This document shows positions 8,774 through 33,147 of a stretch of DNA of 64,000 bases, piece after piece (positions within the stretch are counted from its first letter, which is position 1; each line of letters starts with the position of its first letter). The stretch is from Mayamaea pseudoterrestris (lineage: Eukaryota): contig BROI01000007.1 of the NCBI GenBank assembly GCA_027923505.1, positions 682,001 to 746,000 of the forward strand. Reading direction: 5' to 3'. A model generated the notes under the pieces. That model had not been told where the DNA came from and searched no databases. It saw only the letters and a program-made list of their open reading frames with translations. The translations under genes were made by a program, and so were the position numbers.

Positions 8774-9884
8774 TTAACTCTTGCAGAGAGAGCCGCAAAC
8801 GACAAGGTTGACGGAAAGAACAGTCTCGTCCACGGTGCTAAACTGCTCATATCCATTGGCGCATCCATACTCGCCCGTTCCTCCAATAATGGCGTTCTCG
8901 CTCGACTGGCACGTGAAGGCAAGGTTAATGGTGGAAACAACATCTTGACTGTTGGCATCCATAAAGCTAAAGGCTCCCGTGGCGACGCATTCGGAGCGGT
9001 CCGTCGTGTCGGCTGGCGTAATGGCAAAGTCCGAGTATGTACCAAGCTTGTCGCCAGACGACGCGTCGTAGAATGGAACGTTGCGGAGTCCAAAGCCATT
9101 GACTGCCGTAAAGCCGCCGGCGGTGATTTCGTCCGTGTAAAGCTTGACGGCAATGGTGGAGCATGTTGCGGTTTCGCCGTTTCCGTGGCCGCCGTCAGTG
9201 CCTGGGGCGGAGCCGGATCCAGTGGTGGGAGGAGCGACAGCGGTGGATCCCTTGGCTGGAGGAGGTGGGACAGCGGTGGAGCCTTCCGGAGTTGATGGAG
9301 CAACAGCGGTGGAACCCTTGGCTGGAGGAGGAACGGCGGCAGAGCCTGGAGCAGCTGGTGGCGTTGCAGTAGAACCGGTAGCAGGTGCAGGTGCGGCTCC
9401 ACTGCCTTGCGGCGGCGATGGAGGTGGAACGGCAGTGGAACCAGTTGCTGGAGGAGGAACGGATCCGCTGCTCTTGTGGTGGTGAGCAGGAGGTGCTACC
9501 GAGCCAGAGCCTGTCATATGAAAACAAGGATAGATGAGTGAATGTGTAACTGCAAAACAATCAATCCGCGAAGCTGCTGTATCATTTCTCACCATGCTTG
9601 CTGGCTCCCTTGGAGACTGCGCTACCCTTGGTCGACTTGCTTGCTCCCTTGCTGGCGCTGCCCTTGGAAGCCGCCTCATGGTGGTGCGCATGATGTTCGT
9701 GCTCGTTACGTTCCTTGGTCGAAGCCGAGCCCGAGCTGGTGTGAATCTGGAGCGAGTTCGAGCCTTCGGCTAACCATCGGCCACGAAGGAGCGTCTTGCG
9801 AGTCTCGGGATTCTTTGGAGGATTCGAGTGCGTAAAGGACGCAACAGAGACAAGGAGAAGGGAGAGGACGAGTGACTGCATCAT
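8774..9884 (-). CDS. Secreted Lys/Ser/Gly-rich, Pro-repeat protein with C-terminal dirigent/AOC-like domain (family member 1), 342 aa, 2 exons
   Basis: Exons 9884-9593 and 9510-8774 (G|GTGAGA...ACAG|GC, in frame). Signal peptide, RWL, His cluster, SKGSASKGASKSTKGSAVSKGASK, about 10 GST(A)VPPP repeats, then ECVATG...FTC...NAIIGGTGEYGCANG. Confidence 0.8.
9200..9505 (-). repeat. Coding tandem repeat of ~10-11 aa (GSTAVPPPxx) units
   Basis: Degenerate ~30-33 nt units (e.g. gcggtggaXcccttggctggaggagg on the + strand) encoding GSTAVPPPSPPQ, GSAAVPPPAK, GSTAVAPSTPE, GSTAVPPPPAK, GSTAVAPPTT. Confidence 0.8.
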
Positions 9885-10454
9885 GATGTTGATTGTGGAG
9901 TTGATGGATGATGAGTGCTCACGACGAATTTACAAAAAGTGTGTGTGTGCCGATTGATTGTGTTGTTTGTGTGTGAGCTCGATGCTGCAACGGCGTTCAC
10001 GCTTCGCGCCACCCGGCTGGCGACGTTGGCACACATTACATAGGCTATCGCAAGGCTCACGCGCAGTTTAAATCTGAACGGATGATTTGAATGTGGTGCG
10101 AGCTTCGATGATCCAATGCGCTCGATTCAACTTCCGATAAGATTCATTCGAGGTCGATCTTACGTAGAAATCGTACGCACACGTAGTACGAGTCGTTAAG
10201 TGCCGGATCCTGTAAAAATCGCAGTGGTTATGGATGAGAACTGGTGCGACATTTTAACGGGTTCCCAACGCTCGGACACAAACCATGGGACCGATGACCC
10301 TGCCATCGAAAAAGCACGATTAGGTTTTTCCAAATGTCACCGCGTTCTTTGACAGTGAGCGTCCCAGGTAACAACGCTTTACATGATACAAACAAGGCAA
10401 ACAACAATGCCAGACAGCAGCATGTCTACTACTACAAGCAGAACAATTCACCAC

Positions 10455-12477
10455 ATGCGACGTTTCGCCATCTGCCTCGCAATATCCGCTGTGACGTGCG
10501 TCGACTCGTTGGCACCTCCGCATCCAGACTGGCTCGACTACGAGAGTGTTCACGCGGAACGACGTCGGCGCAACGTTACCTACGACTACACGCCCCAGCA
10601 TGTGACGGCGGAACACTGTCGCTTTCTGAGTGAGGAGCTTTGCGAAATGGAGGATCAGTTGACGGGCCGGGTGCGACAACAGAATCTGGAACGCGTCGAG
10701 CAACGGCGTCGCGGCCTTCAAGTGGGTGTTCCAATCGAATTTCCTGGCAATTCCAACAAGGATATACTACATTCTCCCAACATTGGAGAGTTCAAGATTC
10801 CAGTGCTGCTGATACGCTTTCCGGAGGATGTTAACAAGCCGTTGCAACCGCTGGAATACTTTGACGAAATGTTCAACGGCAAGGGAACATCAGACGTTAA
10901 TCCTGCTGGTTCAGTGGCGGAATGGCTCTTTTACAATTCACTTGGACAATATAAAGTCACGTTTGACGTGCAGGACTGGACGACGGCTCCAAATCCAGCT
11001 TCCTTTTACGCCAAGGGTAACGCCGCCAAGTTGGGCATTTTGATTGCGCAAGACGTGTTTCGATGGAAGCTTGACGAAATGGATGCCGCGAACTTTGACT
11101 TTTATCAGTACGATCAGGATAAAGACGCACGCATTGACCATATGATTGTTTTGCATAGTGGCTTTGCTGCTGAATTTGGAGACCTTGAATGTGCTCCCGG
11201 TAGTTGGATGGACCGGATCTGGAGCCAAGCCGCCGTTGGCGGTGTCAGTGACGGCTTCATGTCGCGCAATCCGCAATCGTACGGACAATACCTATCGTCC
11301 TTTGCCTTGGCCAGTGCCATTGGTACGAAAGGACTCTGCGATTCGCCTGGTGGTGACATGGGCATCCCGTCTCATGAGGTACGTGGCCTTATAAGCATTT
11401 TTAGCTTTAGCACTTGATTGTTCTTTGAAGGCTCACACGTTTTCGTCTTGCCTCAGTTCATGCACGGTTTCGCGCTGCCGGATCTCTATGACACTGATCC
11501 AGATGATGTAGCCATCAAAATTGCTGGTCCTGGAAGCTTTGATGTCATGGCGAATGCGTTTGGTTTCAATCGAAATGCCAAGGTGAGTTTGTTGATCGAC
11601 TTGCGTCGCGACGATATAGGTCGATACAAGTCTCACGTCATGTCTCTGCTAACATTCATTATAGTTTCCCGGCATGCTGTCGTCATTCAGTCGCCAATAC
11701 GGTGGCTGGCTGACTCCTATCAACATTACTAGAAGTGGATATTACGCTGTTCAGCCGGCGGAAGTTTCGGGAACGGCGTATCGCATCGACGCTGGCTTTC
11801 CAGCCGGCGAATACTTACTAATTGAAAATCGGGCAGGACTCATGTGGGCTGGAGATTGGCCGGCAAGCGGTATAGTGATCTTTCATATTGACGAGAATGT
11901 AAGGCTGGACTCTGTTGGATGATGCCTGCGTTATTCGTCTCTATTTGCTCACACTTGAGCACCCTCGTCTTTGCAGGCGCCCATGCAAACTCAACGCGGC
12001 TATCCTGGTCACGCGAACTGGCCACAACAACACTATCGAGTCAGTGTACTTCAAGCGGACGGTAATTACGATATTGAGCAAGGAGTGAACTTGGGCGACG
12101 AAGGGGACTTTTGGATCAAGGATATGGTTCTTGGACCGGGCCCCGATGTCTGGCCAAACACTGACAGCTATCAAGGCTCGCAATACCAGACGGGTCTTCA
12201 AATTACCATCATGTCAGATCCTGGCTTCATCATGATCATCAAGGTCGATGGGATATCGGGAACGAATGCTGCGCCGGGCTTTGCACCAGTTGATCCGTCC
12301 GATGTTTACAATCCTGGTCAGGCTGGACAATATATGCCCAATCAAGGAGCAATGAATAGCTACACGGGAACAACGGAGATCGATGATTTTAAAAATACTG
12401 GGAGAGTCATCGCATGGGTGCTCTCCTTACTGGGAGGCGTTGCCATGGTGCTGGGCTTGTTGGTGGTGCTGCTATAA
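10455..12477 (+). CDS. M6 family (immune inhibitor A-like) zinc metalloprotease with signal peptide and C-terminal TM anchor, 4 exons
   Basis: Exons 10455-11378, 11457-11582, 11665-11898 and 11977-12477. Splicing reconstitutes HE|FMHGFALPDLYD. Also VLLIRF, HSGFAAE, RIWS, EYLLIENR, IFHIDE, LQADG. Upstream in-frame ATGs from 10383 are possible alternative starts. Confidence 0.88.
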
Positions 12478-12822
12478 TCTCGTCGCACCGGGGTGCATGC
12501 CTCGCACTTTAGGTGACACTGACTGCATTTGGGGAACAAAAACAATTTCGCAAATCGTTAACGAATTCGTAGATAGATATACAAACTTCAATTCATGACA
12601 ACGTATCATGTCTTACCATCATTGGCGAATGAGACAGCATCTTGCACTAGCATGGTGTATACAGTGTACTTTACCGGTAGCTAAAATACGAAACGTAGAA
12701 AAGCTAATTAGATGCCTAAATTACGTTGGTATAGCGGCGTGCTAGTAAGTCTATTGGCCATACGAGTATGCATGAGCAGCGTCGTCGGCACGGTGCAGAT
12801 ACTCAGCTTGCCGATATGATAT

Positions 12823-14265
12823 TCAAGACAGCATATCCGCATCATGATCGTCATCACCATTGGGACCGCTATCCTTTTCTCGCTTCTTGTGCTGCTCCTC
12901 CATGGCATCCAAAAGCTTTTGGTTGGCCGTGTCGGCGCTGAATCCCTTGGTTCCGCCCTGCGCTTGATCCAAATCTTTTTCGTGCAAAAAGGGTGCTTCC
13001 ATGTATTCGCCCGGAGCCAAACGAAACTTGAGTACGCCCTTCTCCAGGTCAATCTGACAAGTGTGTCGCTTCATCATGTCCAATCCAAAGAGAAAAGGCA
13101 TTTCGCTGCCAGAACCAGCATCATCCATGACTGTGACACTGCAGGGAAAGTACATGCCTCCAATTTGCAACTGCACCATGTGAATTCGTCCAACAATCTT
13201 GCCAGTGCCAACGCCTTTGGCGATTCCATGAAAGCGCGTGTCAATGTAGTCGTCAAGGCCGCATTCCTTGGCGACGCGAAGACTCATAATGGTCGTTTGC
13301 GCACCAGAGTCGCAAAAGGCTTGAATCGGATGATCGTTGATCTTGGCTTGTACGTAGAGCATTAAAACTTGACCAAGAGCTTCCGGATACTCGTTCATCA
13401 TTTGCGTGTACTGCTCGTGAACCTTGCTGCGTCGCTCCTTGGCTGCAAAGTACTCCTTGGCTTCCGCGTCGTCCGGATTGGAGGCAAGCTGGCGAACCAT
13501 ATCCGACTCCTTGCGGCCGCTTTCGGTGATGCGCATGGCATTTTTGATTCCAGACTCAACAAGGTGATTGCGCCAAAACTGAACGGCTTGATCGAGTGGT
13601 TTGTTGCGGAGTTGGGAAGCCAACTTGGGATCGTGATAGTTCAATTCCTTGAGCAAGTGCTCCTTGGACTGCAACAGCGTAACCTGAATGCATGAACGAA
13701 CATGGATGAGAGCAGTGGCACATTAGTGAGCATATGCATGTCATCAAGTAAAAAGTGGAATAGATCAAACAAGCATGGCACGTACAAAGGCGTGCGGATG
13801 CGGGTTATAATGCATGGCATCATTCACATCCATTCCATTCCAATATACTGGCGCCGGCAATTGCCCATTCGGCTGGGAAGCAGAACTAGCCAAACTACCC
13901 AAATTGTTTCCTCCGCTTGAACCAGAAGATGCGCCTCCAGCTGCCAGCAAGTTGGAAAAGTCCAAGCCGCCAGAAGCAGCTGGCTGTTGCGGAGCTGCGG
14001 GTTGTGATGATTGCGACTTGCGGGTTTGCACCGCCAAAAGGTCGCCATTTTGACAGCCTGCTGCTTCCAGTGATACAGTAGTATGTAACAGTGGTTTTCC
14101 ATCGCGAAACAAAACGAGGTCGTCATTGTCAAGCCCAAAGAGAGCCTTTGCCCAAGAAATGATTTCCGCAATCAGTGTTGACGAAGGAACCGGAATGCAT
14201 TCCGATCGACCGGTAACAGCAGCTACGAGAGTAATCGTCCAATCAGAAGATGATGAAGAAGACAT
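12823..14265 (-). CDS. DDI1: DNA damage-inducible protein 1 (UBL plus retroviral-like aspartyl protease), 2 exons
   Basis: Exons 14265-13786 and 13683-12823 (GTACGT...TTCAG). N-terminal ubiquitin-like domain. Motifs VLMLYV, AFCDSGAQTTIMS, IDTRFHGIAKGVGTGKIVGRIH, FLFGLDMMKRH. No C-terminal UBA domain is evident. Confidence 0.92.
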
Positions 14266-17574: not shown

Positions 17575-20500
17575 CTACGCTGTCCAGAACGAAATGCCAC
17601 CCGGCGGATGGTTTCTGTTGCTGTCGCTGCTAACATACTGCTGGACGTCTTCATCGACAATTGTAATCATACCGTCGTCACTCCCGATAAAAAGAAACTG
17701 AGGGGTCGGATTAAGATCGGCAGGTGTGAGCCCAATGCAACGAATAGGTCCGTGGCGAGCCAGGTCGAGCACAGCGCAGACCACCATGTCACTTGTCGTT
17801 CGTATCAAAACTTGGCATCTCGTGCCGCCGGTAATCAGAATTTCGCCGCTTGAGCAGATAATCATGTCATTCAACTTTTCACCCGCATCAGTGCTGCAAA
17901 GTCGAACACCATTTACGGTGAAAGTATGCAATCCAAAATCACCCATATGCACGACGACGATGCTCGTTCCGTGCATGGCAACTTTCTCTACGCCTTTAGA
18001 AGGTTTACCTTCGGCTAGCGGGGGAGGGTGAAAAGAGCGAATAAATTCACCTCGTCTTATTGTATGAATACAAACAAGACCACCATGACATCCCGACACG
18101 ACGGCGTCCAGATCTGAGTCTAGGGCAACGCACGCCATCGGCGCTGGTAGAAAGAAGACGAATTTGAGTTGATCTGCGAACAGAAACGCGTCATTTCCTT
18201 TCATGCTTCCTACCTTCATGTCCCCAAAGAACGTGGCAACAGCTCAAGATTTGCCCGCCATCGTTCGAGGCACCGAGTACAGTCTGCATATATCCATCGG
18301 ATATTGCAACACTCATATCCGGATGATCAATAACCCAGATACAACAGGTTCCATCTTGTGCACCCGTAACCATGAGTCCACCGTCTTGTCCAATCGCGAG
18401 ACACGTAATCGAGTCTTGATGTCCTCCACAGCCATGAGCAATTTGCCGTAAGGTCTCTGTTGAGTGAATCCGAACAGCATCATCAAAATAGCCACAGCTT
18501 ACAACATACCCGTTGGTTTCCGCATTAGAAAGCTTATCCGTGCCAACAAGAAGTCTGTTAGTCGGTGGCATTACAGCTTTCCGACGAATCAATTCTTTCG
18601 CCTGGCCGCCAATCGTCGCAGCGAAGGAACAGCTGCTAATGGTCCGATAGCTTGCTTCCATCTTCGTTTCACTTACAGCGGACCCTCGTTTGATTGAAGT
18701 ACGTGATGTGCTTATCTCTCGCCTTGACATTGGATTCAGCTTGTCCATCCTCAATTGACCCTTCTTGCCCTTGAGAGCCCAACGATATGTCCCAATGCTC
18801 ATGTCTCCGTACACGACTAAAATTGACTCAGTCTGGACATGAATCTTGAACACGGCTCCTTTTGCATGCTCGCTTCGTGTGTTACCAAACTGCTTCGAGG
18901 GAGTGTGGCATCTTAGTTTCTTGGGAACTGATAGGTCGTGTATCAAAGGTTTCCAGCACACTTCGGTAGGGTACCGGCAGGGATGTGGGTCGCATTGAAT
19001 TAACTGACTGGGTGTTTGTCCAAAATTTTGAATGTGGCTTTCCGCCGCCTTGCGATCGACCATGTCGGAAATTTTGTCTAGATCAACGGATCCTTCATAT
19101 GACAAATGGTGAAAAAGATTGTGCGCCAACATGGCTTCAGGGCCTCGCTGTTTCTCTCCAAATACTAAATCAAGCCAGTGATGAAGCGACTGTGAAACTA
19201 TATCAGACTCTAAAGCCAGACGATGAAGTCGGACAAACTCATAGGGTGACCCTTTCGCCCAGGGTGGCAGCACCACATGATCGACCTGCCGCCCTCGTTG
19301 CGTGCGGCCTAGTGGAAATTTGTTCGTGTTTAGAAACATCTCGGGTAAACAGTAGAACTCGGGAATCAGCTCTTTCATGTCAGCAGTAGATGTCAGACAA
19401 GAGTTCCAACTATCAGCCAAGTCAATAAAAAGCCTGTCAGGGGAGTCGAATCTCCCTGACTGCAATTCAATGGCCATTGTTGTGAATGGCTCTTGTCGAA
19501 TAAGATAGTGGAGCACGATTCCTGGCGATGAGTAATGGCTTCCGTACAAAAATTTCTCATTTTCTGCAAAGCCAAAGAGTTCCAAATCATTGTATCGCTC
19601 AATGAGCTGAGCTAAGCGATCCGGATTTAATGCCCCGATCGGTTTGGTTAGATCTCGATATGCACGGGAGTCCGAAAGATCAATTTCCGTGCTAGTGTAG
19701 TCGGCAAGTACCCAAGGAAAGACTGGATACTGGGTAATATCGTTGAAGCTTCGGCCGGCCATGCGATTTAATGCCATTATGTATTCGAAGTTTGATATTT
19801 GGCGCTTTCTCCATAACTCTGTGAGGCGAGACTTTCGAAAGACGGTTCTTGGATTCAGCGACTTAAGTGACCACAGCATTGGCGTCTGTGGGCAAACAAT
19901 GTGTTGAGGCGATTTTTCAGAAACTACTAACTGTTTTCAATGCGTCGTAAGTTACCTTGCAGCTGCTCCTCAACTTGGCATAAAATCTATCGCGCTCCTT
20001 AAACCCGCTAGCAAAATTCAGAAACAGTTCATGACTGTCAGAGAAAAAGAGTTCTAGCGCTTGTGGGCGAAGCATGTATCTGCGGCCATGGACTTCTGTC
20101 AAACGAGCAAGTCGCCAGCGCCGACTCGTTGAGTCCTTCTCGCCAATCGCAACGGGCTCATTGGTGATGGTACCAATTTCATCGCCCATTTGGCGAAAAT
20201 ATAAGCCATGTGTAGTAAGAAGTAAAGCTCCTTCGACGTATGATCGAAGGGAAACAAGCATAACCGGGTCGAAGCGAGCAACCACTTCTTCATTGTCCGT
20301 CCAAATAAACACTTTTGCCCATGCGTCACTGTCGCCATCACCATCAACTCCACCTATCTCTGTGGACTCTATTTTATCCCACTCTTCATCTTGCTCCAAG
20401 TCGTTGACACTCCCAGCGGGGCGCTTGGAATGGTTGCTCTCACCACGACTGGCACCGTCGTCTTCGTCGTCGCTCGTATCGGATGTCAAATCGTTTTCGT

Positions 20501-23500
20501 GAAGCTCCTCTTTCTTAGCCGTCTCGTGAGAAGTAAACGCTTCTGCGTTGCGTCGCATGACATCAGAGAATTCTTTCTCCAGTATTGTAGGCTTCGCGTC
20601 TCGTTCGTGGTCAATATCTTGCTCATAGCTCGCCCCTGCGTGGTCGAGGAAATTTCGATTTGGCACAAGCAACGTCCTACGTCCTATCCTGTCGGTATAT
20701 GGAGCGAGTTTCCAATGCTTTTCGTCATTCCATGGCCCAGCAGCTTTATTCTGTATTGCGCTCCATCGATTCTCTGCTCCATTCCGTCTTAGTAGTATTG
20801 ACATAGCAATATCGGTGTCGCTGTTGTGCTTCTCTGCCAATCGTTTCAGCGTGCTAGTGCCCTCCAATTCTAGTTCACGGACGGCGTCCGTCGCTGCCCA
20901 TTTCTTCTGATTTTCAAGATATTCTTTGAACCAGACATCCATCACCTTTTCAAAGTCTGATACTATTGCTGTAGAGTTGTTGACAAGTGCATTAATCGAC
21001 ACCACCCCTTTGCCAAGCCGTTCGATGTCTGATCCCAATGGCATTTTAGTTGGGCATAGCTGCTCTGGCACCAATAGACCCAAACGAGATTCTACGTCTT
21101 GAAAACCTGAGACCCAAAGGCTGCGAAGAAACTCTCGCACCAATGATTCTTTAGATGTTGATGACGAAGTACCTTCTAAGCTACTTCGAAGTGCTTCTGC
21201 AGCGGATCCAGACAAGCACACCATAAACAAATCCGTTCGCGCTCGGTAAGCTGTGGCAACAATGTCTCGGAGTTCGAGGGCGGCCCGAAGTAAACGTCTA
21301 TGAGCCTTTCTCTGCCCGTCTCTATTTTCAAAATATAGTTCGTAAGGCGAAGATTCGATCTCCGAAAGCACAGCTGAGCAACGCCCCAGGCCTCGATGGC
21401 AGTGCATTGCGACGGCTAAGACAAGATGATCAAGTTGCGTCACCGGCGTTGCAGGTATTTCTATGCCAGTACTGTCCTTGACATTGAGCTCGCTGATAAA
21501 CTCGAGTATCCACTGAAGTAAGGAGCGAAGTCGACCGATAGCCTGCAAAAATCGGGCACTACATGGTTCGATATGCGACAAAAGTATAAGAGATAATCGC
21601 ACCCCTGACAGAAGGAGTGGCCCTTGCGAAGAGCCTAATCGAGGATCGGAGTTTCGAACGAGAGAAAGACCATGCAATTGACTCGAAGGCAGTGCTTGCT
21701 CCAAAGTGTCTGGAAACATGAACGAATCCAGTATGGCGAGAATTTGCGCAGCCACTACCGTAGAGAGTCGTCTATTGGCATCGCGTCCATCATGATTCCC
21801 CGTCTCGATTGTTGACAGGTATTGTGACGATTTGATCGCACAAAGACGCGTTTCTGGGAGGCGAATACCATGAATCCCTTTGGAGGCGGAGTCTATCGCA
21901 GCCCCTCGCTCATTAGCGTAGTCAAACAAGTCGACAACTCCGTAACTAAAAAGGTTAAAGAGAACTTCAGATGCGGTGATAAAGATTTTCCAGACTCAGC
22001 TGAGAGACGTACCCACATGCAGTCGTCATCGCGACAACTACTTCCGTCAAATGGCGAAGCGATCTCCAGCTCCGAACGGCAGCATTCAAATCCAGACCTC
22101 TAGTTCCATTGGAAAGTATCGCATCGGTGACGAGCCGTGCACTCTGTTTTAAAAGAGGACTTTCATACTCGATATCAATTTCCTTCCATTCCGCGGCCGA
22201 CATCGAACTTATATCGCGAAGCGTGCCGTAATCGAACAAGTTACCACAAAGGTTGCTAAAAATTAGAAAAGAGACGTGCCGCCCATTGACACATAACCTT
22301 TGAAGCGACGCTGCTCTCTCGACTGCATCCAATGCCTGTTTCGACGCAATAAAAAGTTAGCCCCCACAGTTCTAGATTTTTAAAACTCTATCCGACAGAC
22401 ACAACGCACCTTGTCGCCACCTTCGCGAAATAAAAATCCAAGCAAACATGAGTATAGATCTAGACACAGATCCACCCGCCTGAAGACGGAAGTCGAATCA
22501 ACATCTTGCTTCTTGTAGTGGGTTGATCCCTTAACAAACTCGCTCACGGAGTCCGAAATTTCATTTTTGTCCGAAGACTCCGTTTCAAGTGACGATAAAA
22601 TAGTCTCTAAACCATCTGCTATGAGAACAAATAAAATGGGTTGCCAATCTGACAACGTCGAAAGCATAGCCATACTCCGTCGACTTGCCCTAGCCATTGC
22701 GAGGATGTCTGATATCCATAGCTCTTGCGAATTTCCGTCAAGGAATCGCAATAGCCGCATTACGACTGTCAGTGCCAGTGGGTCGCTTAAAATACCACCA
22801 ATAACACTCCCAGTCTCCGATATAAAGTCATCACAGCGAGGCATATTGAAATAATATCCTGACGGCTGGTCATCACATTCAGATATTAAACTAGATTGAA
22901 GAAGCGGCAGTGAAGATAGTTTCTGCCCCGTATCATTGTTGATCCAACAGAGCAATGCTGACCTAGTCTGCTCACCCCACTGGTTGCGGTGAGACTTTAA
23001 AAAATGCCACATAAGCGTAACGGCCACTTTTGCCGTCGTCGTGGTGATTGAAGATGTAACTGTCGGCCTGACACCCGGACCCATAGCTGCAATCCCCTTT
23101 GCAATCAGACCTAACCCGCGTGTTTGAATGATGGCATCGACATGATCATGTTCTGTTTGTGTTGACTGATTCGGAAGCGACAAAGGCAAGTCTGAATCGC
23201 TTGATGTCATCTCAAAGAATGCAGCCATGGATCGAAGACCGAAGCAACATACAGCATCGTCGCCAGTGTCGATGAACGTGGCAAGTATCCAGCCTACTGA
23301 GGCTTGGATGCTCCCACAACAGTCGACGAAACTTTCAACGAGGCCAGGAACCGGCGGTCGAATCTGCAGCAAGAGATAAAAAGCCGCCGACGCCTTCACA
23401 TTCCAAAGTCTCCCCATGTCGCAGTGTAGTGTACACATTTCTTCGCCACCGTCTTTTACACAACCCAGTTTCGGTCCCAAGCGACTTGCCAAGAGCGCGA

Positions 23501-26500
23501 GAAAAGGCGACAGATATGCTGGTGTCACACCCGTGGACAGAACATTAAAAATCATTCCGAGTAAAATATCAAGCGCGTGCGACAGCTCGGCAACTTTGAC
23601 AGCACCTAAGCGTCCATTATTTTCGTCGAGATAATCGTTCACTAACAATACCATATCCCTTGCACCAACACAGTCGCGGACCTTTCCAGGGACAGATTTT
23701 GCAATACGCGAAAGGACAGGAAGCAAGCCTTTTTGTAGCAGGTGCTGCTCTATAGGTGGCGAGGTCGCCCCACCGAGCCACAGCGGAATGTTAAACACAA
23801 GACGAGAAAAAACCTTGGTTTCGAGACCCACGTAATGTGTACTAGCAATACGCAAAGCGAAAAGTGAATGGACAAGCCGATAAGCGGTGATCTCGCTCTT
23901 TTCAATTACCTGGAAAAGCTTTCCCGAAAATGATCGCCGATTACTTAGTATGAGCTGCTCAAGCACATCCACTCCTCCACAGCGGAGAAATTCTCGCGCA
24001 TTATCATGATGCTCATTAATGAAGGCAGTAAGCAACATAAAAATATCGGGTAATGGTGAAAACAACTCGTCTTCATCGGCATCGAAAGACGCTTCGTATA
24101 AAGGTTTCATCGTGCCTACCCCAGTGAGAAGCACTCGGAAGATCGGAACCAGTGATTGCATCCCACCAACGCTACTGATACCATCCTGGGATCCATTGCA
24201 TGACCACGCAAAATCGTTGTCTGACAAAGACAAGTGAGATCCAACGTGCAATTCGATCACCATGCCGTCAAACGTTCGACGGGGATCCCAAGAAAGAAAC
24301 ACTCTCGATCCGAACTGGCTTAGTTCTAGACCCGAGGGCAGGTGCAACTCATTATCATCGTCACCTTCGCCAATGTCAAGGATAGAAACGCTAGGACTTT
24401 CGGACATATTGCGTCCCACAAGCCGTCGGTGACTTAGAACAATCTCTTCGGCATCATCGTTTGTAATGTTAGCATCCAGCACACGCGAACGTTTCACTAT
24501 TGCACTCCGCCGACTATCCCAAGTTTGACCTGTGCTGCTCGACCTTTTTAGCAAGTTGTTGTTTCCGCCAGTGGTCTCGTATAGCGCGCTGAAAGAGGCA
24601 TCACTGACATGGTCATTAAGTAAATACAGAGTACCAGTTTGTCCTTCAAAGCTGTCAGCAAAAGTGATGCATAGATTGAAACGGGATCGCACATGAGAGC
24701 CGCGTCTCAACTTCGACAGCCCAGTCTGTTGCCACCCTGCAGCTAAACCAGCTTGTAAAAGGGACGACGCACTGTCATCGCCAGCGACACCACTTGTATT
24801 AGGAAATGCCAATGAGTCAGTCAACAAAACCTTCCCATCGAGCATGATGGAAACTTGCTGCCGGGTCGACATTGAAAAAACACCTTTTAGTCTTGATCTT
24901 GTGTGCCGCACGACAAGATGATACCATACCCTGGGCAGAAGTACACACCCTTGTACATCGATAGTCCTGGTCGGTTTGGGTTGACTCGAATCGAAAATGG
25001 AAACAGCCACCGTACAAGCATCTGATGACGGCTGGTGCGATAGAGGAACCAACGACACTTCGATACCGCCACCATCATCCGAGCGTACACTCAACAGAAT
25101 CGGCTTTGCTTTGGCCGGGTCTAATCGCTCGGCTCGGAACCAAACTGCCATGCCAAAGTCATTTCGAAATGGCCAAGTCGACAAACCTGTGATCGTTCGA
25201 TGCATGCCGCCACCACCAGACAAGGAAAAGAAGTGACGCGGAGGCGTTCGGCTCATGACAAGTGGCCGCGACGCACCCGACGCTGCTGTGCGCATTGCCC
25301 GCAGCAGACACATGCGCGACGTGTTGGTATAATGCGGTGACTGGCATCCCGTCAGCAAGCGCCGGAGGAACCATGGCGAAACGCCAGCGACACCTACCAA
25401 GCCCATGAATCGAGCCAGTGGCGCCAATAAAAGGTTCGCCTGCTGCGGTCGCACCCAATGTTTACTCGTCGCGGCTCGCTCCCATAAATTCCACAATACT
25501 TGCAGCGAGGGTCGATGGTCCTTGATCAGGTTGCGACTTGTTTCAAACTGTTCATCCCTGCAAAACTTGTTCCAGTAATATTGAAAGCGAGCAAACGTAT
25601 ACAGTAAGTGAGGCCGTCGCGAGGCATGATCTGGATCATTTGGTCCTTCCTCAATAACCCTTATCAATGGCTTTGTCGTGTCAAACGTTGGTCGCGTCAA
25701 AAAGCATGATTCATTGTACTCGTCATCTGGTTCAAACGTTAGCAGTCGAACAAGTATTCGAAGCAGCGACGATACAAACATTATAGGAAATCGTAGCAAG
25801 GCAGGGTGTGCAGCAGTGCCGGCGCTCAAGAGTCGAATGATTCGCGACGGATCAATCAGTGTTGGTTGATCCGAAATATTGCTGCGCGCGTCAAAGTCTC
25901 GCGTCTGCTCCAACGCGACCACCTGTTGCACCACTCCCAAGTCAATCGATGGCGCGCAAAAGCCTTGCAGCAGTAAATGCAGCAATATAGCATAGTCATC
26001 TGTTGGTGGCGTGTTTTCCGGCAAAATTTGGTACTCGACGAGCAGTTCCAATACTGACGACTCCTCTCCTTCCGGCACTGTCAACGACGATGTTGCTACG
26101 TTTCGCAGCCGTCGTCGCGATGATGATTGTGGCGAAAATACTGGCTTGCCACTTTCTGCTTTTGCATTGTTGCTTTCAGAATCATGAAATGACTCAAACT
26201 TGCCTCGAAAGCTTTCCTGCATGAGCGACGAGGAGGAAGATGATGCCAATGATTCCAAGGATGCTTGTCGCTCGGAAATATATTTAGCGCTGCGGACATT
26301 GTCGACCGTAAAATCTATAGACTCCTCCACATTATTGTCTCTGACAACCACAATGTCTTGATCAGTCATGTTGCTTGGTCGTCCAGCTGCATGAATCTTG
26401 AGCGTCGTTTGAGGCGAGTAATGCTGTTCGGATGTTGGCGGTGGTTGTGGATTGTCAAGTACAGTTTCCATGGATGCTTCCTCCATATACAATGATGTGG

Positions 26501-26831
26501 ACGCCCGCTTTAACAAACTCTCCTCGTCTTCGTCGTCGGAGAGAAAGGGCGAAGTCACGCCTTGTCGTTCGCTTGATTCAGTAGCTGTTCGCTCGGCAAA
26601 CGATTCAAGGGGTGTAACCTTTTCTTCACCACCCTCGTTTTGCTGATCTCCCTCATTACCATCCACCATGACTGCAGATTCAGAAGCCAGCAGCTCCGTC
26701 AATTCCCAGTCCTCCGTGGCCGAATTGTGTGACGGCCGCCGATTCATTGGATCATTTAGATCCTGCGAATCAAAAGGGAAATTCGTGGATTGATTCATTT
26801 CGTCCGTCGGTGATGAAGTGTGACCGTCCAT
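17575..26831 (-). CDS. BEACH-domain protein (neurobeachin/LRBA/NBEAL-like: ConA-like, PH, BEACH, WD40), ~2991 aa, 5 exons
   Basis: Exons 26831-22410, 22335-22013, 21945-19956, 19885-18214 and 18143-17575, all GT-AG and in frame. Motifs RRYMLRPQALELF (PH), [52 protein letters not shown], then WD40 repeats. Confidence 0.93.
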
Positions 26832-27337: not shown

Positions 27338-28267
27338 ATGTCAGCCGCACCAGTGTCACTCGACGGCCGCAATCCTGTCGACTTTGACCAAGTACCCGAG
27401 CACGAGCGCATGCTTGCCAACCGCCTGCACATTAACCAGGCCATTGTGCAGGCAGCCGCCGCGTCAACGCCAAAGCAACCAATGTCAGCAGTCACCAAGG
27501 CCCGAGACGTTTCACTCGCGAATCAAACAACGACGGAATGGAACGCCGCGTCCACGGAAGGCGGACTCAAGGAGCACTGGCCATCGCACTTGCCGCGGCC
27601 GCCGTCCATGAAGAAGCTTGTCGACGACAACGACTCTGCATCTGGAAGCAACCGCAGCAACGCACCTCGCGTCATTTTGTTCAACGCCAACATGGATGAA
27701 GGCGTGAGCTTGGTGCGCGTCTTGGCAAAGAAGGGTCTCCAAGTGACGGCGGTGGTGCGCGTCTTTACCAGCAAGAACGCCAAGCGACTCACCAAGCTCA
27801 AGGGCGTGACGGTCAAGGTGGCCGATTTGAACAACAAGGAGGCGGTCATGCAGGTTGCGGAAGGATGTTCGCAGGCGTTTCTTGTGACAAAGTACTGGGA
27901 GCGGTTTGAGAATCCCATTGAGGAAAACATGGCCAAGGTTGTGGTGGATGCGTCGGCGGCATCGGGGATTCAGCGGCTGGTGTTGGCCACCTTTGAGGAT
28001 ACGCACATGCTTCGACTGCGAAGTTTGAAGTCGCAAATTAGTCCGACGCAGGATGGGCTCATTTATCCAACCTTTCAGGGAATGGACAGCATCAATAAAT
28101 TTGCCAAAATGCGAGGCGTAAGCGTTACGCACATGTTTACGAGTTATTTGGATGTGGAGGACGCCAAGAAGAGTTTAATCTTGATCCGAGGCGAAAATGG
28201 AAAGATTATATCACAAAGCAACTGGCAAGACCCTGTCTCGGGCAAGGCTTTGCCAGTACCGGCGTAA
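27338..28267 (+). CDS. NmrA-like / atypical SDR-fold protein with degenerate nucleotide-binding motif
   Basis: VTAVVR, VTVKVADL, AFLVTKYWE, E...AKVVVDASAASGIQRLV match the NmrA pattern. The Gly-rich motif is replaced by FNANMDEG, and the C-terminal part is short. Confidence 0.7.
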   Translation: MSAAPVSLDGRNPVDFDQVPEHERMLANRLHINQAIVQAAAASTPKQPMSAVTKARDVSLANQTTTEWNAASTEGGLKEHWPSHLPRPPSMKKLVDDNDSASGSNRSNAPRVILFNANMDEGVSLVRVLAKKGLQVTAVVRVFTSKNAKRLTKLKGVTVKVADLNNKEAVMQVAEGCSQAFLVTKYWERFENPIEENMAKVVVDASAASGIQRLVLATFEDTHMLRLRSLKSQISPTQDGLIYPTFQGMDSINKFAKMRGVSVTHMFTSYLDVEDAKKSLILIRGENGKIISQSNWQDPVSGKALPVPA

Positions 28268-28678
28268 ATGAAAGGCTGAGTGATCAATGTCTTGTCAGTG
28301 AATGCAACCAAAACCAGTCCTTGCCTGCCTTAGATTGTACTGGTAGATATACTGGTAGCTTTAAAAGTATATATGTGTAATTTATCAAACCAATTAAGCT
28401 ACTAAAGGATTACGCATCGTATCCAGGGAGTTTTGCCATCTCTCTTAGCTTAATCATCGTACGAACTCGGTCGATAATTTAAGGACCATTTGAATGCGTT
28501 TCAGACCTTTGAACGTCCTATAAGCTCTCTATATACAGCATGATTTCGGTGATACAAAACATTAAAAGCACTTATTACGTCGTTCAAAAGAACGACTCAC
28601 TCAATTACGATAAACATTCTTCCATTTCCATCCACATTATCCTTTCAGACACACCCATCAAACCCCTCCATCCACACT

Positions 28679-29449
28679 CTATCCTTCATTCGATCGCTCA
28701 AAGTAGACTGCGTTGAAAAAGATGGACGTGCCAACCAAACTCGCCTTTTGCTCCGGCGTCGCTTCCTTGGGAAACACAATCTCAAAGGCATTCGCATCCG
28801 TAAACACCTCCATGGCCAAGCTCTTTGGTTTCTTGAGAATCTTGCCAAGATGCGCAGCATCTCCTCCGTTCGTATCGCGCTGGTTCGGATCAAAGATCCA
28901 AAACGGAAGCTTGCAGCATCCCTTGCCAAAGCATGGATTGCCTTCCGTGCAGCAGTTGACGCAGCAGCCGGCGCAGCAGGTCGGCGGATGAATCTTGTAA
29001 ACCTTGTTTCCGTTGGCGTCCAGTAGCGTGTATTGCGGAACGCAGTAGTAGCAATTCTCCTGAATCTTGCCAAGGTCGTCCGATCCGCTCTTGAAGGAGG
29101 CTTGCTGGTAGCAGCAGCACTTGCAGGCACCCACCACGCAGCAAACAAAGGGACGTTCCACCGTCAGGAGCTCGGTTTTGGTCGGCACTTCCTCAATGCG
29201 CGTGGTAAAGGGATAGACGGCGCCGCAGCACCAGCGGCAGAGACAGTTTGATTCTTCCAATGACGTTGCCATTTGCTGTCCGTTGATGTAGTACTTGATT
29301 TCATTCTTGGCGTTGCATGGGCAGAGGCACTCCATGAGCCAGCCGCGACGAGTCTCGCGGACTTCCATGTTCGTGGCTCCGGAAAGGTGGGTACGCATGG
29401 CTTCCGTGCCGCGGCTCATTTGTTGGGGTTTGGGAGCAGCAATGGACAT
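28679..29449 (-). CDS. Phospholipid scramblase family protein
   Basis: EESNCLCRWCC, LTVERPFVCC, LGKIQE, YKIHPPTCC, GKILK, FTDANAFEIVFPKEATPEQKASLVG. Cys-rich loops. Confidence 0.85.
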   Translation of the reverse strand: MSIAAPKPQQMSRGTEAMRTHLSGATNMEVRETRRGWLMECLCPCNAKNEIKYYINGQQMATSLEESNCLCRWCCGAVYPFTTRIEEVPTKTELLTVERPFVCCVVGACKCCCYQQASFKSGSDDLGKIQENCYYCVPQYTLLDANGNKVYKIHPPTCCAGCCVNCCTEGNPCFGKGCCKLPFWIFDPNQRDTNGGDAAHLGKILKKPKSLAMEVFTDANAFEIVFPKEATPEQKASLVGTSIFFNAVYFERSNEG

Positions 29450-29847
29450 GGTTGCTTGGGAATGTATCAATGGATGAAGGGTGGAGGATAATCCGCAATG
29501 AGCGGATGATGCGAGACGCGAGAGGGAGACTGGATTTGTGAAATGATCCAATCAGAAAGAGAATTTGAAAGCAAGATATATCAAGTTGCTCACTTCCGAG
29601 ATTTCAGCAGTGTAGTGATGAAGTGCTTCGTTGTTCTGGCGAAAATGATCTGGTTAAATTATTCGCATGTCCATGGTTGCGACGTCAACTTGCAATCGGA
29701 AGATACGGTTTAAAAATTAGAGTTTAGGGTTTTCTTTGGTCACAAATACGTCACAGCTGTACTGTATGTCTTGCTCTTTTCCATACAATTGGCAATAACG
29801 ACGATGATGCTTCTAGGTACCGTATATAGGAAACAGACGACCCCGCC

Positions 29848-29930
29848 TGTCAAGCAGTCCATTAAGCTAACTTTTCTTACAGAAACAAATGATCGGGCTT
29901 GTCAAGCAGTCCATTAAGCTACCTTTTCTT
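29848..29930. repeat. 31-bp direct repeat (1 mismatch) spanning the thioesterase stop codon
   Basis: tgtcaagcagtccattaagctaacttttctt (29848-29878) vs tgtcaagcagtccattaagctaccttttctt (29900-29930). Confidence 0.85.
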
Positions 29931-30786
29931 CTGATTGAATCATTTCCTCGTAGACGTTGCGAGGAATCACAAAGACACTGGACGCTTCACAATAGAGCGT
30001 TGCAGCGACGGCCTCATTGTCATCGTCACTCCAACGTTCCACCACAACCTTCCATACCATTTTGCGCTCCTTTCGCTCCACAAGCACGGCTCGTATACAA
30101 ATGGTTGATCCAGCTGGTACACCGGCTCGGTAGTTGACATTCAAATTGGCCGTGACGGCATAGGGAACATCCAAACCTTCAATGGCAGCGTAACCAAGTG
30201 TATCATCAATCAGCAAGGCCAATATTCCGCCATGCACTTGGCCCTTGTGTCCATCCAAGTTGTTTCCAAGCTGCACAATGCTCATGACGACTTCGTCATC
30301 ATTTGGATGTATATTCTTGTAGACGTCAAAGGAACGAATGCCGCCGCCATGCGCAGTGTCATTTTCCAGCAGTGCTCCCAAGACGGCATGCGACTCCATC
30401 AAGGCGCGTGGAGGAGGTTCAATGTATTCGTAAATGGAAGTGTCGACGCGATGTATTTGTTGTTGTGGTTTGGCAGCAGTGTTCGTTGTTGCTACATTCA
30501 TGTTTGCACTGTCGCAACTCGTCATGGACAGTCTACCAAATATGAATCTCGGCCGCAATCGCTCTGCATCCTCCAACAAGTATCGATTATAGAAATTTGA
30601 AAACGTTTCTCTTGGTTGCACTCGGCTATTCGACAAAACATTATGGTTCGACGAGGGTGCAACAAATGCATTGGTGGCAGTGGTCGAAAGAAGAACGACC
30701 GTTGTTGCTCCAGAGCAAGCGATCAAGCAGCGTCGCGACGAGAAAGTCTTGGTTGAAAGTAGATTACGCATCCTTTGAATGTGCAT
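29914..30786 (-). CDS. Hotdog-fold acyl-CoA thioesterase (PaaI/THEM4-like) with organellar leader
   Basis: DGHKGQVHGGILALLIDDTLG, VTANLNVNYRAGVP, RKM, LYCEASSVFV. The N-terminal leader contains TNA-FVAP. Confidence 0.85.
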   Translation of the reverse strand: MHIQRMRNLLSTKTFSSRRCLIACSGATTVVLLSTTATNAFVAPSSNHNVLSNSRVQPRETFSNFYNRYLLEDAERLRPRFIFGRLSMTSCDSANMNVATTNTAAKPQQQIHRVDTSIYEYIEPPPRALMESHAVLGALLENDTAHGGGIRSFDVYKNIHPNDDEVVMSIVQLGNNLDGHKGQVHGGILALLIDDTLGYAAIEGLDVPYAVTANLNVNYRAGVPAGSTICIRAVLVERKERKMVWKVVVERWSDDDNEAVAATLYCEASSVFVIPRNVYEEMIQSEEKVA

Positions 30787-31172
30787 CTTGTGTTATTGAT
30801 GAGTGTGGCCGTACAATGCGACGACGTGACAAGGGATGGATGACGACGAATGACGAACAATGAAGGAACGCGAAAGCTACCTAGCCGGCACTACGTGTCG
30901 TACCGGTAGACGAGGCTTGCTCGTTGGAACGGTCGCTTTGCAACCACAATGGCAAACTTGCTGCGGGAGCACACGCCAAAATAGTGTCGCTAAGGCGCCG
31001 AAAGTCGTAAAATATGAAGTTTATAAACCCCAATGCAAGTATATACAGGATGAAATGGGTAAATGATGTCATTGTTACAGAAGAATTATGTGATTACAAA
31101 CTATAGCGGCGACGCTTCATGGCCTCGAAAGCCAAGCGAAACGACGGCGCGCGGATGCACGAAGGAACATTA

Positions 31173-31913
31173 TTACATGGTGCAGGTTCCGCAAACACTG
31201 ATTTCAAGATAGATGCGTGTTGGAGTACGCCGGAACACTCGTGCTGTGCCTGCTGCGCATTGGAAGTCTCCAGTTCCTCCAGTGACAGAGTTTTCAATTT
31301 GAGTCGAGCACGTCCCTTTAAATTGAGGAGAACGAGGCAATGGTGAGTCTTTGTGTCGATTCGAGGTGTAATTTCATCACTGTCAAAAAATCCATAACAT
31401 ACCTTGGTAGAAGAGCTGATCTGATGTCTTTCCAGCTGGTGTTCGGCCAAAGCTGAGGGCTCCATTGGCCGTGCAGTCAAATGTTCCAGTGATGAGATTG
31501 GTCTCCGTCACAAAGCCTACAACTCTGCCAGTTCGGGCATCAGAGAGGTTGAGGCGGTCAACAGTGTAGCCAATGGCCTTGCCCTTGGATCCTCGACCAG
31601 TACTGATCTCGCTCAAGTTTCTGCGGTACTCTCGCTTGTCGTAGTAGACGCGGTATGTTGCGCAGTCTTCCTGGGACGCGCCCTTGCTTCCCTTGGTTCC
31701 CTTGGATCCTCCCGTGTTGCCTCTTGGACCTCTGTAAATGTACGTCGATAGTCCAGGTGGGCCTTGGCGGTGTGATAATTGACGGTTGAATCCATTTGCT
31801 TCAGGGGCAACTTCTTCATCGGGGACGACGCCCTCTTCGCTCATTGTAGATTCTAAAAGTCCAACCGCAATGGCGGGCAGCATGAAGGAAAGAAATAGCT
31901 TGAACGCGCGCAT
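31173..31913 (-). CDS. Secreted Lys/Ser/Gly-tract protein with dirigent/AOC-like domain (family member 2), 217 aa, 2 exons
   Basis: Exons 31913-31403 and 31315-31173 (G|GTATGT...TAAAG|GG). The splice restores QLFYQG-TCSTQIENSVTGGTGDFQCAAG...VCGTCTM*, colinear with the intronless paralog at 32515-33147. Signal peptide, acidic propeptide, RQL, GGSKGTKGSKGAS. Confidence 0.8.
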
Positions 31914-32514
31914 GTTGATATGTTGATGATTGTGTGAAAGTTATCGATGTATGCGAAAGTTTCGATACCAAAGCAATTTGTGAGATCACAGACGCTGTAA
32001 CGGTGCACTGACGGTGCGTTGGATCAAGTTGACGCGACAATTTATTTTCGCACCGCGCGTTGAGTCCGATGGAGTATTTTGAGCTCGAGCCGGGCTGCCT
32101 TGGATCGCTTCATCCGACTGCCAAATTTCCAGAAGCAACGGCAGGTGCGCAATGCGCACCTGGGGTCGGCGCACCGTGAGAGAATCTCGGCAGCGACTAC
32201 CCATGGGCTATGGAACCAGGATAGGTATGATAGACATCAAAGTCTACTAATGATTTATTGAGTCAACTATTGAGTACTTTAATTGATGGTTTTGAGAGCT
32301 GCCAAGCGAATAAGTTTGCGTCATCGAGCAAATTCGACTCGACACTTGTACACATCTACCAGCAGGCTGCACACACGCTACTGTTGGTATTACGAGACGA
32401 AGTGTTTGACAAGATATTTGGATTATATAAAATTACAACAAGACGAAATAGCTTGATTGCATACGCCTGGGTAGATCGGGTGCAGGCAGAGCGGACATCT
32501 CGACCACAAAACAT

Positions 32515-33147
32515 TTACGACAATTTGTCACATGCCATTAGTTCAAAAAAGAACCTGTTGGATCTTTGTCCTGAGAAGCGCATAACTCCCTTGGCCCCAG
32601 TGTAGACTCCAGTTCCTCCCGTTACTGCATTTGTCAGACCACCAGAGCATGTTCCTTGGTACAAAAGTTGGTTCCGCGTTCGACCGCGCGCATTGTTGAG
32701 TCCGAAATTAATTGACCCAGTCGCTGTGCAGTCTTCTCCTGCGTCGATGACTGTCTCGGTGAGAGTAGCAATGATTCTGTTGGTCTTTCGATCATATATT
32801 GGCAATCCCTCTATCGCTTCTCCAAAATCGCCAATGAGTATGCCATTCTTTGTGTAGTCTCGCTGCGCCGTCCACACTGAAATCATTTCACAGATGGGTG
32901 AAGCGCCACTTCCCTTGCTCCCTCCCTTCCCTTTGCTAGCTCCTTTCTTACTCGCGCCCTTCTTACTGGGTGGTCCCTTTTTACTGGCTCCCTTGCTTCC
33001 TTTCAAAGTCCGATGGGTGCCGACGTCTCTGGCGCCTCCTCGCACCTGCGGCAATTCTTCTCCCTCGATCTTGTTCTTGTTGACGTCGCGAAAAGAGAAG
33101 CCCAATGCTGGGGCCACCAGCAATACTAGGAAAGCAAACGTACGCAT
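32515..33147 (-). CDS. Secreted silaffin-like Lys-rich protein with dirigent/AOC-like domain (family member 3), 210 aa
   Basis: Intronless. Signal peptide, then RTL directly followed by KGSKGASKKGPPSKKGASKKGASKGKGGSKGSG, then DCTATG...QLLYQGTC...NAVTGGTGVYTGAKG. Confidence 0.82.
   Translation of the reverse strand: MRTFAFLVLLVAPALGFSFRDVNKNKIEGEELPQVRGGARDVGTHRTLKGSKGASKKGPPSKKGASKKGASKGKGGSKGSGASPICEMISVWTAQRDYTKNGILIGDFGEAIEGLPIYDRKTNRIIATLTETVIDAGEDCTATGSINFGLNNARGRTRNQLLYQGTCSGGLTNAVTGGTGVYTGAKGVMRFSGQRSNRFFFELMACDKLS

Follow-up and report, generated by a model that had tools for sequence, protein, structure and literature searches.

Three Mayamaea pseudoterrestris genes for putatively secreted, lysine-tailed proteins with a predicted dirigent/allene oxide cyclase-type barrel

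A 64,000-nucleotide stretch of the Mayamaea pseudoterrestris genome (NCBI GenBank assembly GCA_027923505.1, contig BROI01000007.1, positions 682,001 to 746,000 of the forward strand; this whole stretch is called the window below) carries three genes, named here G1, G2, and G3, in whose products a signal-peptide-like start, a short propeptide ending in an RXL site, and a lysine-containing tail precede a folded C-terminal domain. All three lie on the minus strand, where the first-pass annotation of this DNA had placed them (Table 1). That annotation had also proposed that a silaffin-like, silica-targeting tail carries a barrel of the dirigent/allene oxide cyclase (AOC) type into the silica deposition vesicle or the cell wall. 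The locus raises the question of whether the domain is such a barrel, and of where the tail takes it. We suggest that G1-G3 are expressed paralogues of a large secreted family in diatom-type algae whose lysine-tailed trimeric barrel is tethered to the wall, and we give this scheme as a whole a probability of about 0.5.

Paralogy, expression, and predicted fold

The three genes are related by ancestry, as judged from their predicted products, and do not resemble each other by chance. In BLASTP comparisons, G3 matched exon 2 of G1 (E = 7e-11) and exon 1 of G2 (E = 8e-16). A profile hidden Markov model (HMM) of the family, derived from 92 members, was searched against 1545 six-frame stop-to-stop pieces of the window and matched only the four exon pieces of G1-G3 (E = 4.8e-52, 2.6e-48, 1.7e-16, and 3.1e-12), the next-best score in the window having an E value of 0.11. 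The match of G2 exon 2 (profile positions 132-180) carries on from that of exon 1 (positions 7-135). G2 and G3 stand in tandem with about 600 bp between them, and G1 lies 21 kb away. The claim of three genes with one architecture is thus borne out by the gene models, by homology, and by the family HMM.

G1-G3 are real, expressed paralogues. The spliced G1 model is identical, letter for letter, to a database protein (P0013). Four public runs (X1-X4), all from one study and with the kind of library not on record, cover positions 31000-33300 at 95-99% identity to the window. X2, X3, and X4 each have one contig that lacks exactly the 87 nucleotides predicted as the G2 intron, and X1 gave an unspliced G2 contig; the simplest reading is that X2-X4 hold cDNA-derived sequence of a close relative. 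The relative is 1-5% diverged from the window, with small insertions in the G2 intron and many synonymous changes, and may represent a different strain or a sister species. Among 27 listed differences between the window and the run contigs in the coding sequences of G2 and G3, beside which there are nine further differences, 23 are synonymous; the four non-synonymous ones fall in the G2 propeptide and at the end of the G3 tail, and none of those listed falls in the barrel. The barrel of G2 and G3 is under purifying selection. The contigs of X2-X4 have a gap over 31924-32539, between G2 and G3, which was not used as evidence.

The C-terminal domain was modeled with AlphaFold2 for G3, using a 92-row alignment, and for G1 exon 2, using 12 rows; the two exons of G2 were analyzed separately in the fold and search work. 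Both models show a helix-capped barrel of beta-strands, with a predicted local distance difference test score (pLDDT) above 90 in the domain and below 55 to 60 in the tails. A Foldseek search of the PDB with the G3 model returned 25 chains at E <= 1e-3, with moss AOC2 first (3.5e-5) and the dirigent domain of rice JAC1 also found (2.2e-4), and all of the matches listed, with E values up to 3.2e-3, were AOC, dirigent, PodA, or barrel cyclases. In structural alignment with VIA-align, the best G3 match was the rice JAC1 dirigent domain (7r5z; Z = 14.3, root-mean-square deviation 2.9 A, 122 of 142 residues), and Z scores of 13.8, 13.5, 12.9, 12.2, and 11.9 were obtained for Cyc15, GePTS1, PodA, AtDIR6, and PpAOC2, respectively. 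The fold class supplied 37 entries at Z >= 8.5, and streptavidin-type barrels came next at 6.6. With the G1 model, the same set scored between 13.0 and 8.2, led by PodA (13.0), Cyc15 (12.8), and the rice dirigent domain (12.3). The proposal of a dirigent/AOC barrel is upheld by these predicted structures, which match solved members of both kinds with Z up to 14.3.

Searches at the level of sequence point the same way. A profile search of PDB sequences gave nine weak matches at E <= 10, eight of which were dirigent, PodA, or PyrI4-type proteins, aligned on the GGTG-x-[FY] hairpin and including the AIVGGTGQF/AIVGGTGAF stretches of 7r5z and 6ooc. The hairpin is present in all three genes, and its residues G177 and G178 are invariant across the 92 family rows. 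Pfam Dirigent was the sole domain family matched, by G1 exon 2 (E = 5.3e-5, 23.4 bits), and 23 of the 92 rows also matched it at E <= 0.01 (best 2.4e-6); Pfam AOC (PF06351) gave no match at E <= 10 in the four exon translations. Membership in Pfam Dirigent by the family's own threshold is not supported by these scores. Taken together, the domain is almost certainly an eight-stranded barrel of the dirigent/AOC superfamily.

The annotation had called the barrel possibly oligomerizing. When three copies of G3 residues 82-210 were modeled together, a homotrimer was predicted with a score of 0.87 in each of three runs, whereas the best of three controls reached 0.02. Contacts agreed between runs to 96% or more, and the pLDDT of the partners was at least 84. 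The predicted interface includes residues 173-180, the invariant hairpin. In calibration, 21 of 30 proteins solved as homo-pairs passed the mark, and none of 23 solved as single chains did; among eukaryotic proteins the figures were 17 of 29 and 0 of 30, and of the 7 that lacked an older solved relative only one passed. The prediction speaks for a trimer and does not show one.

RXL sites, tails, and cysteines across the family

With G1 exon 2 as query, phmmer found 92 proteins at E <= 1e-3 among 1.84 billion representatives, 38 of them at E <= 1e-10. Seven proteins, 44-66% identical to G3, are clear orthologues of it and begin with the conserved M-R-x-x-x-F-L..P-A-x-G-F-S-x-R-D. R-x-L-K occurs in six of them, RAV-K takes its place in the other one, and a K/G/S tract of variable length comes next in every case.

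The RXL sites claimed for the three genes are all present: RWL at residue 36 in G1, RQL at 44 in G2, and RTL at 46 in G3. For counts across the family, 44 of the 92 aligned rows were usable, namely those that, by a crude rule, begin like a signal peptide and include the first domain Cys; they are not independent, as eight belong to the G3 orthologue group and three are false signal-peptide calls without a linker. R.L occurs in 33 of these 44 linkers, compared with 8.1 expected after shuffling within each linker, and is directly followed by KG ten times. By these counts, the enrichment of RXL is genuine and extends over the whole family. As for the domain motifs named by the annotation, [ED]C.A.G...F and [FG]TC occur in all three genes; the third, as printed, occurs in none, N[AS][IV].GGTG.[YF] being followed in all three by two positions and not three before [AN].G.

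The tails are less uniform than the annotation's single K/S/G tract, which is strong in G3, moderate in G1, and weak in G2 (Table 1). In G1, a run of about 25 K/S/G/A residues begins 34 residues past RWL, and His runs and about 115 residues of Pro/Thr/Ser/Ala repeats follow. The underlying DNA contains an 18-nucleotide tandem repeat (2.8 copies, 9597-9651) in the first part of the tail and a 33-nucleotide unit (3.2 copies, 9228-9332) in the second. The His runs HEHHAHHHE and AHHHK stand on either side of the Lys tract (9640-9720 and 9470-9500) and may bind metal or sense pH. K/G/S/A tracts of this kind were found in 3 of the 1545 six-frame pieces of the window, two of which belong to G3 and G1. 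Among the relatives, long K/G/S stretches and KGSKG, GKGKGYYPPP/GKGYYPPP, and GKGAMPGKG repeats occur, at least four Lys fall within 15 residues in 22 of the 44 linkers, and tails differ widely in length and composition; some rows have no tail before the first Cys, many of them perhaps truncated. A subgroup (P0049, P0054, P0064, P0078, P0083, P0097, and P0101) carries the propeptide [AT/Y]R[LF][EQ]I.TDENGERRL straight after the signal peptide, ending in RXL with little or no Lys tract. Such conservation of propeptides within a subgroup suggests a sorting or chaperone role.

The cysteines bear on the compartment. All six are present in 60 of the 90 rows that cover the C-terminal half of the domain. 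Cys2 and Cys3 were lost jointly in seven of seven cases, and Cys4 is missing in 13 rows, eight of which (the G3 clade) also lack Cys6. Paired losses are the pattern that disulfide pairs produce, and this points to an oxidizing compartment, that is, the secretory path. The predicted pairs are Cys1-Cys5, Cys2-Cys3, and Cys4-Cys6. A secretory location is therefore highly probable.

Other collections were also searched. Two profile searches of a word-indexed protein library yielded 28 proteins, with scoring confined to the 8000 candidates that had most words in common, and 12 proteins; one of these carries a taxon name, that of a Bacillariaceae metagenome-assembled genome (MAG). In a protein atlas, the best clusters for G3 were plant dirigents (scores 0.80 to 0.76), and the best for the G1 domain was an unnamed cluster (0.90; 61 members of 139 residues) labeled Nucleocytoviricota. 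A pattern scan of IMG/VR gave 27 matches and no confirmed relative, and the viral lead is for this reason unsupported. Among 185,579 prokaryote genomes, 50 matches were found by pattern scan, of which one passed tblastn; it is a 24-residue match in a Clostridia MAG and is not meaningful.

Possible destinations of the proteins

In the scheme that we favor, a signal peptide would bring the protein into the endoplasmic reticulum, and the short propeptide would be cut at RXL by the endopeptidase that processes diatom wall proteins. The mature protein would consist of a disordered cationic K/G/S tail on an eight-stranded barrel of about 125 residues, closed by two or three disulfides, the tail of G1 being lengthened by His runs and Pro/Thr-rich repeats. 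Homotrimers would form around the conserved N-x-x-x-GGTG hairpin, so that each particle would carry three cationic tails. These could tether the particle to anionic wall material, such as the silica surface, phosphoproteins, or acidic polysaccharides, and the barrel pocket may bind a small hydrophobic or phenolic ligand or orient it for coupling. We infer secretion, RXL cleavage, and the homotrimer (from structural modeling) from the evidence above; any ligand in the pocket is putative. Tethering to the wall through the tail seems evenly poised, and embedding in silica is doubtful.

The RXL site itself says less about silica than the annotation had assumed. It is described as a probable endopeptidase motif common to silaffins, frustulins, cingulins, and silacidins (PMC4557024). 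As a hallmark of silaffins it stands insofar as it has been described in them, but it is also described in frustulins, which are not silica-forming and join the wall only once silica has formed (PMC4557024). RXL thus marks diatom wall proteins generally and not silica proteins as such. More specific are pentalysine clusters, defined by the expression K..K..K.{1,2}K..K and reported in 29% of the 92 proteins of a silica proteome compared with 1.5% of the background; as a weaker criterion, KxxK pairs target silica to some extent (10.1101/2021.09.18.460806). A published silaffin-like screen combines a signal peptide with repeated K[SG][SG]K, 1-6 residues apart (PMC5501833).

Several of our results weigh against the scheme. 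The trimer job used three copies, whereas the calibration used two, and the family alignment was not used in it. Dirigents and AOC have been solved as trimers, and the pass therefore shows likeness and perhaps memory: it may come from the model's memory of these solved structures. The Pfam Dirigent score of G1 (23.4) does not reach the gathering score of 29.1, and G3 and G2 exon 1 have no match to this family at E <= 10. The G2 tail holds three Lys only. The pentalysine expression was found in none of the three window genes and in 3 of the 44 family linkers, and repeated K[SG][SG]K in none of the three genes (no motif in G1, one each in G2 and G3) and in 5 of the 92 rows. Finally, as judged by eye, about 25 of 41 family members have an aromatic residue or Leu (F, Y, or L) right behind the presumed signal peptide, or about 18 of 34 when the G3 orthologues are counted once.

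The best-surviving alternative goes beyond tethering. It holds that the tail acts as a true tag of the silaffin type, its Lys modified and its Ser phosphorylated, and that it carries the barrel into the silica deposition vesicle and leaves the protein embedded in biosilica. The G3 tail, with 11 Lys among 37 residues and no acidic residue, fits a tag of this kind, as do the ten recurrences of KG directly behind RXL and the G3 orthologues that pass the published screens, P0005 having both the pentalysine pattern and repeated K[SG][SG]K and P0006 the latter. The enrichment of pentalysine clusters in the silica proteome and the weak targeting by KxxK pairs (10.1101/2021.09.18.460806) also speak for it, as does the report that enzymes engineered to carry the R5 peptide entrap themselves in silica (PMC4557024). 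As to KxxK pairs, two KxxK within 10 residues occur in G2 (at 71 and 74), with one KxxK each in G1 and G3, and a looser rule, with starts at most 14 residues apart, takes in 12 of the 44 linkers. On the other hand, none of the three window genes passes either published screen. The presence of RXL in frustulins, which enter the wall after silica formation (PMC4557024), counts against a silica-specific reading, and no dirigent is among the named domains of the 92-protein silica proteome of three centric diatoms, where a sub-threshold, unannotated member is possible (10.1101/2021.09.18.460806). The tails resemble those of silaffins in predicted composition and charge, from which silica targeting is a further step, and we consider a true silica tag a tentative option, less probable than its absence. 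Since none of the three proteins passes the published silaffin-like screens, earlier searches would have overlooked them.

An unlikelier alternative is that the proteins are secreted and remain soluble or bound to mucilage outside the wall, the barrel acting as a binder or enzyme (cyclase, coupling, or lectin-like, on oxylipins, phenolics, or sugars) and the tail serving as a glycosylated spacer. The structural neighbors (AOC, pterocarpan synthases, PodA, Diels-Alderases, and the JAC1 dirigent domain) all bind small molecules or act on them, as would be expected of such a protein, and the variability of the tails, their lack in some perhaps truncated rows, and the Pro/Thr/Ser/Ala repeats that make up most of the G1 tail would suit a spacer. 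A mere spacer sits poorly with the Lys-rich tract right after RXL, which persists in G3 orthologues of 44-66% identity, and with the Lys density found in half of the linkers (22 of 44).

A plastid destination was also weighed. Import into heterokont plastids goes, as a rule, with F, W, Y, or L at position +1 of the signal-peptide cleavage site (ASAFAP type), and plant AOC is plastidial. A signal peptide followed by F or L would on this reading be a heterokont bipartite plastid presequence, with the barrel acting in the plastid or the periplastidial compartment. With signal-peptide ends assigned by eye from the translations, F stands at this point in G1 and G3, as the annotation had noted, and L in G2; the excess of F/Y/L across the family is far above that for a random residue and is unexplained in a family that otherwise looks extracellular. 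The G1 propeptide has one acidic and five basic residues in 22, and two neighboring open reading frames (ORFs) show that this genome uses such presequences. One of these (7767-8522, plus strand), which has no Pfam match, reads after upstream Met codons MMKLSCLVLLSSASA-FSVKNLAP and then SRRNMLTFAAATITCLLPALNANA, that is, SSASA-F followed by an RR-type lumen signal, and it looks like a heterokont bipartite plastid presequence joined to a twin-arginine thylakoid-lumen signal. The other (29914-30786, minus strand) encodes a 4HBT-type thioesterase (Pfam E = 5.3e-10) whose N terminus, ...LLSTTATNA-FVAPSS, resembles an ASAFAP-type plastid signal. Nevertheless, a plastid location is improbable, given that the propeptides of G2 (seven acidic and one basic in 28 residues) and G3 (five and six in 32) are unlike transit peptides, that the paired Cys losses point to disulfides, that the long Pro/Tyr/Lys repeat tails look like extracellular matrix proteins, and that Pfam finds Dirigent and not AOC.

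Returning to the wall-tethered, lysine-tailed barrel, one can imagine a more specific function, which we put forward as a long shot. The trimer, delivered by its tails and released at RXL, might orient radicals made by a wall peroxidase and thereby cross-link Tyr- and Lys-rich matrix proteins into the insoluble organic matrix that patterns silica. Its three tails might act as a multivalent nucleator of the silaffin/polyamine phase, and the Tyr-rich tails of relatives (GKGYYPPP) might be substrates in cis. A peroxidase is reported in the published silica proteome (10.1101/2021.09.18.460806).

Relation to known systems, gene layout, and significance

G1-G3 are an algal, tail-bearing form of the dirigent/AOC barrel superfamily. 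With the plant dirigents (PF03018; AtDIR6 5lal, PsDRR206 4rev, the pterocarpan synthases 6ooc/6ood, and JAC1 7r5z) they share the eight-stranded barrel (Z from 14.3 to 10.6 for G3 and from 12.3 to 10.5 for G1), the aligned hairpin GGTG-x-[FY]-x-x-A-x-G, and, by prediction, secretion and a trimeric state. They differ in sequence (9-17% of residues identical to solved dirigents in G3, 13-22% in G1), their Pfam score is below gathering, and they possess, in addition, four to six conserved Cys, an RXL propeptide, and a low-complexity tail that is cationic. Their host, moreover, is an alga whose plastid signals are of the heterokont type; dirigents are, to our knowledge, regarded as a land-plant family, an invention guiding radical coupling in lignan and lignin chemistry.

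AOC (PpAOC2 4h69, AtAOC 1zvc/2gin) has the same barrel (Foldseek E = 3.5e-5; Z from 11.9 to 11.4 for G3) and is trimeric, as is predicted for G3. G1-G3 have no Pfam AOC match, and AOC, a stromal enzyme, is not known to have disulfides or tails. The bacterial barrels (PodA 5k21 and the Diels-Alderases Cyc15, AbyU, PyrI4, and PloI4) share the fold as well, with Z from 13.8 to 11.8 for G3 and PodA at the head of the G1 list (13.0); identity is 11-16%.

With silaffins and cingulins (Cylindrotheca fusiformis Sil1p, tpSil1-4, CinY/CinW), G1-G3 have in common the signal peptide, RXL, and K/S/G-rich disordered cationic stretches, and the Sil1p repeat as quoted by the annotation, a sequence unconfirmed in a paper, resembles the KK/KGSK spacing of G3. 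However, there is no homology, the tail of G2 and G3 is short (37 residues), a folded barrel makes up most of the protein, and neither the pentalysine nor the repeated-KXXK screen picks out G1-G3. The annotation had treated a folded domain in a silica-associated protein as unusual, and this was overstated: 29 of the 92 silica-proteome proteins are reported to carry known domains (10.1101/2021.09.18.460806), and the silicanin/SiMat7-like proteins likewise unite a signal peptide and RXL with a folded, conserved domain rich in Cys (PMC5501833). The latter are described as having eight Cys of their own and a C-terminal membrane anchor (PMC5501833), whereas G1-G3 are anchorless, have another fold, and carry a cationic tail. 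A folded domain behind RXL is thus an already known principle, and a dirigent-type barrel in that place is new. Engineered R5-peptide fusions have the same layout of a short cationic tag and a folded cargo (PMC4557024); G1-G3 are natural and known from sequence. Within a collection of open-access papers, supplementary tables aside, we found no description of an RXL/Lys tail joined to a dirigent/AOC barrel, which agrees with the view that the combination is undescribed. In the same collection, titles and the beginnings of abstracts gave no diatom dirigent protein, and the titles among those listed gave no relevant diatom AOC.

Table 1. Gene models and protein parts of G1, G2, and G3 in window coordinates
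Feature	Position	Strand	Product, composition, or evidence
G1, whole gene	8774-9884	-	product of 342 residues
G1 exon 1	9884-9593	-	gene model
G1 intron	9592-9511	-	82 nt, GTGAGA...TGACAG (GT..AG); spliced translation equals P0013 exactly
G1 exon 2	9510-8777	-	stop codon 8776-8774
G1 residues 1-16	9837..9884	-	signal-peptide-like, ends VAS then F; translation, putative cleavage site
G1 propeptide, residues 17-38	9771..9836	-	ends RWL; 1 acidic, 5 basic
G1 tail, part 1	9593..9770	-	His-rich run, then K/S/G/A tract
G1 tail, part 2	9164..9510	-	Pro/Thr/Ser/Ala/Gly-rich repeats, predicted disordered (pLDDT <55, model residues 1-111)
G1 tail, whole			175 residues: 10 K, 12 H, 27 P, 30 S; net charge +3
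G1 barrel, Cys214 to end, with stop	8774..9163	-	six Cys; family HMM E 4.8e-52, Pfam Dirigent E 5.3e-5, pLDDT >90
G2, whole gene	31173-31913	-	product of 217 residues
G2 exon 1	31913-31403	-	signal-peptide-like start, acidic propeptide ending RQL, short tail, first three quarters of barrel (from Cys84, codon 31664-31662); family HMM E 1.7e-16
G2 tail			37 residues: 3 K; net charge +4
G2 intron	31402-31316	-	87 nt, GTATGT...TTAAAG (GT..AG); skipped in run contigs
G2 exon 2	31315-31176 (stop 31175-31173; with stop 31173..31315)	-	last quarter of barrel, GGTG hairpin and C-terminal Cys pair; family HMM E 3.1e-12
G3, single exon	33147-32518 (gene to 32515)	-	product of 210 residues
G3 residues 1-16	33100..33147	-	signal-peptide-like, ends ALG then F; predicted helix 4-15
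G3 propeptide, residues 17-48	33004..33099	-	ends RTL; GFS[FLM]RD...R.L-KG kept in orthologues
G3 cationic tail, residues 49-85	32893..33003	-	37 residues: 11 K, 10 G, 8 S, 0 acidic; net charge +11; pLDDT 37-60
G3 barrel, Cys86 to end, with stop	32515..32892	-	four Cys; pLDDT >90 over residues 85-207

The window is gene-dense eukaryotic DNA with a GC content of about 50%. Its plastid presequences, the use of RXL, and the one named relative, from the Bacillariaceae, point to an ochrophyte host, probably a diatom. A Pfam scan of 28 neighboring ORFs found transporters, BEACH proteins, FtsH, helicases, and the like, and no wall or silica gene cluster among them. Three consecutive long ORFs at 18191-26831 (minus strand), with DUF4704, PH_BEACH, and BEACH plus WD40 domains, look like one very large neurobeachin-like gene broken by introns or frame changes. 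Adjacent ORFs at 39020-41706 (minus strand), one with an AAA domain and the other with AAA-lid and M41 peptidase domains, correspond to an FtsH-type protease and are probably a single intron-containing gene. An ORF at 44449-45978 (plus strand), 11 kb from G3, has a weak Sulfotransfer_3 match (E = 3.9e-6, about at the cut-off); some silaffins are reported to be sulfated (10.1101/2021.09.18.460806).

A large, conserved, and expressed dirigent-fold family in diatom-type algae would widen the range of this fold. The family unites a dirigent-type fold with two hallmarks of diatom wall proteins, the RXL site and the cationic Lys/Ser/Gly tail, and offers a new and structurally tractable candidate for work on the wall and biosilica, with a small barrel, predicted to be trimeric, that suits expression, crystallization, ligand screens, and tagging. 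Should the tail indeed target silica, nature would offer in these proteins its own version of the silaffin-tag fusions engineered to immobilize enzymes.

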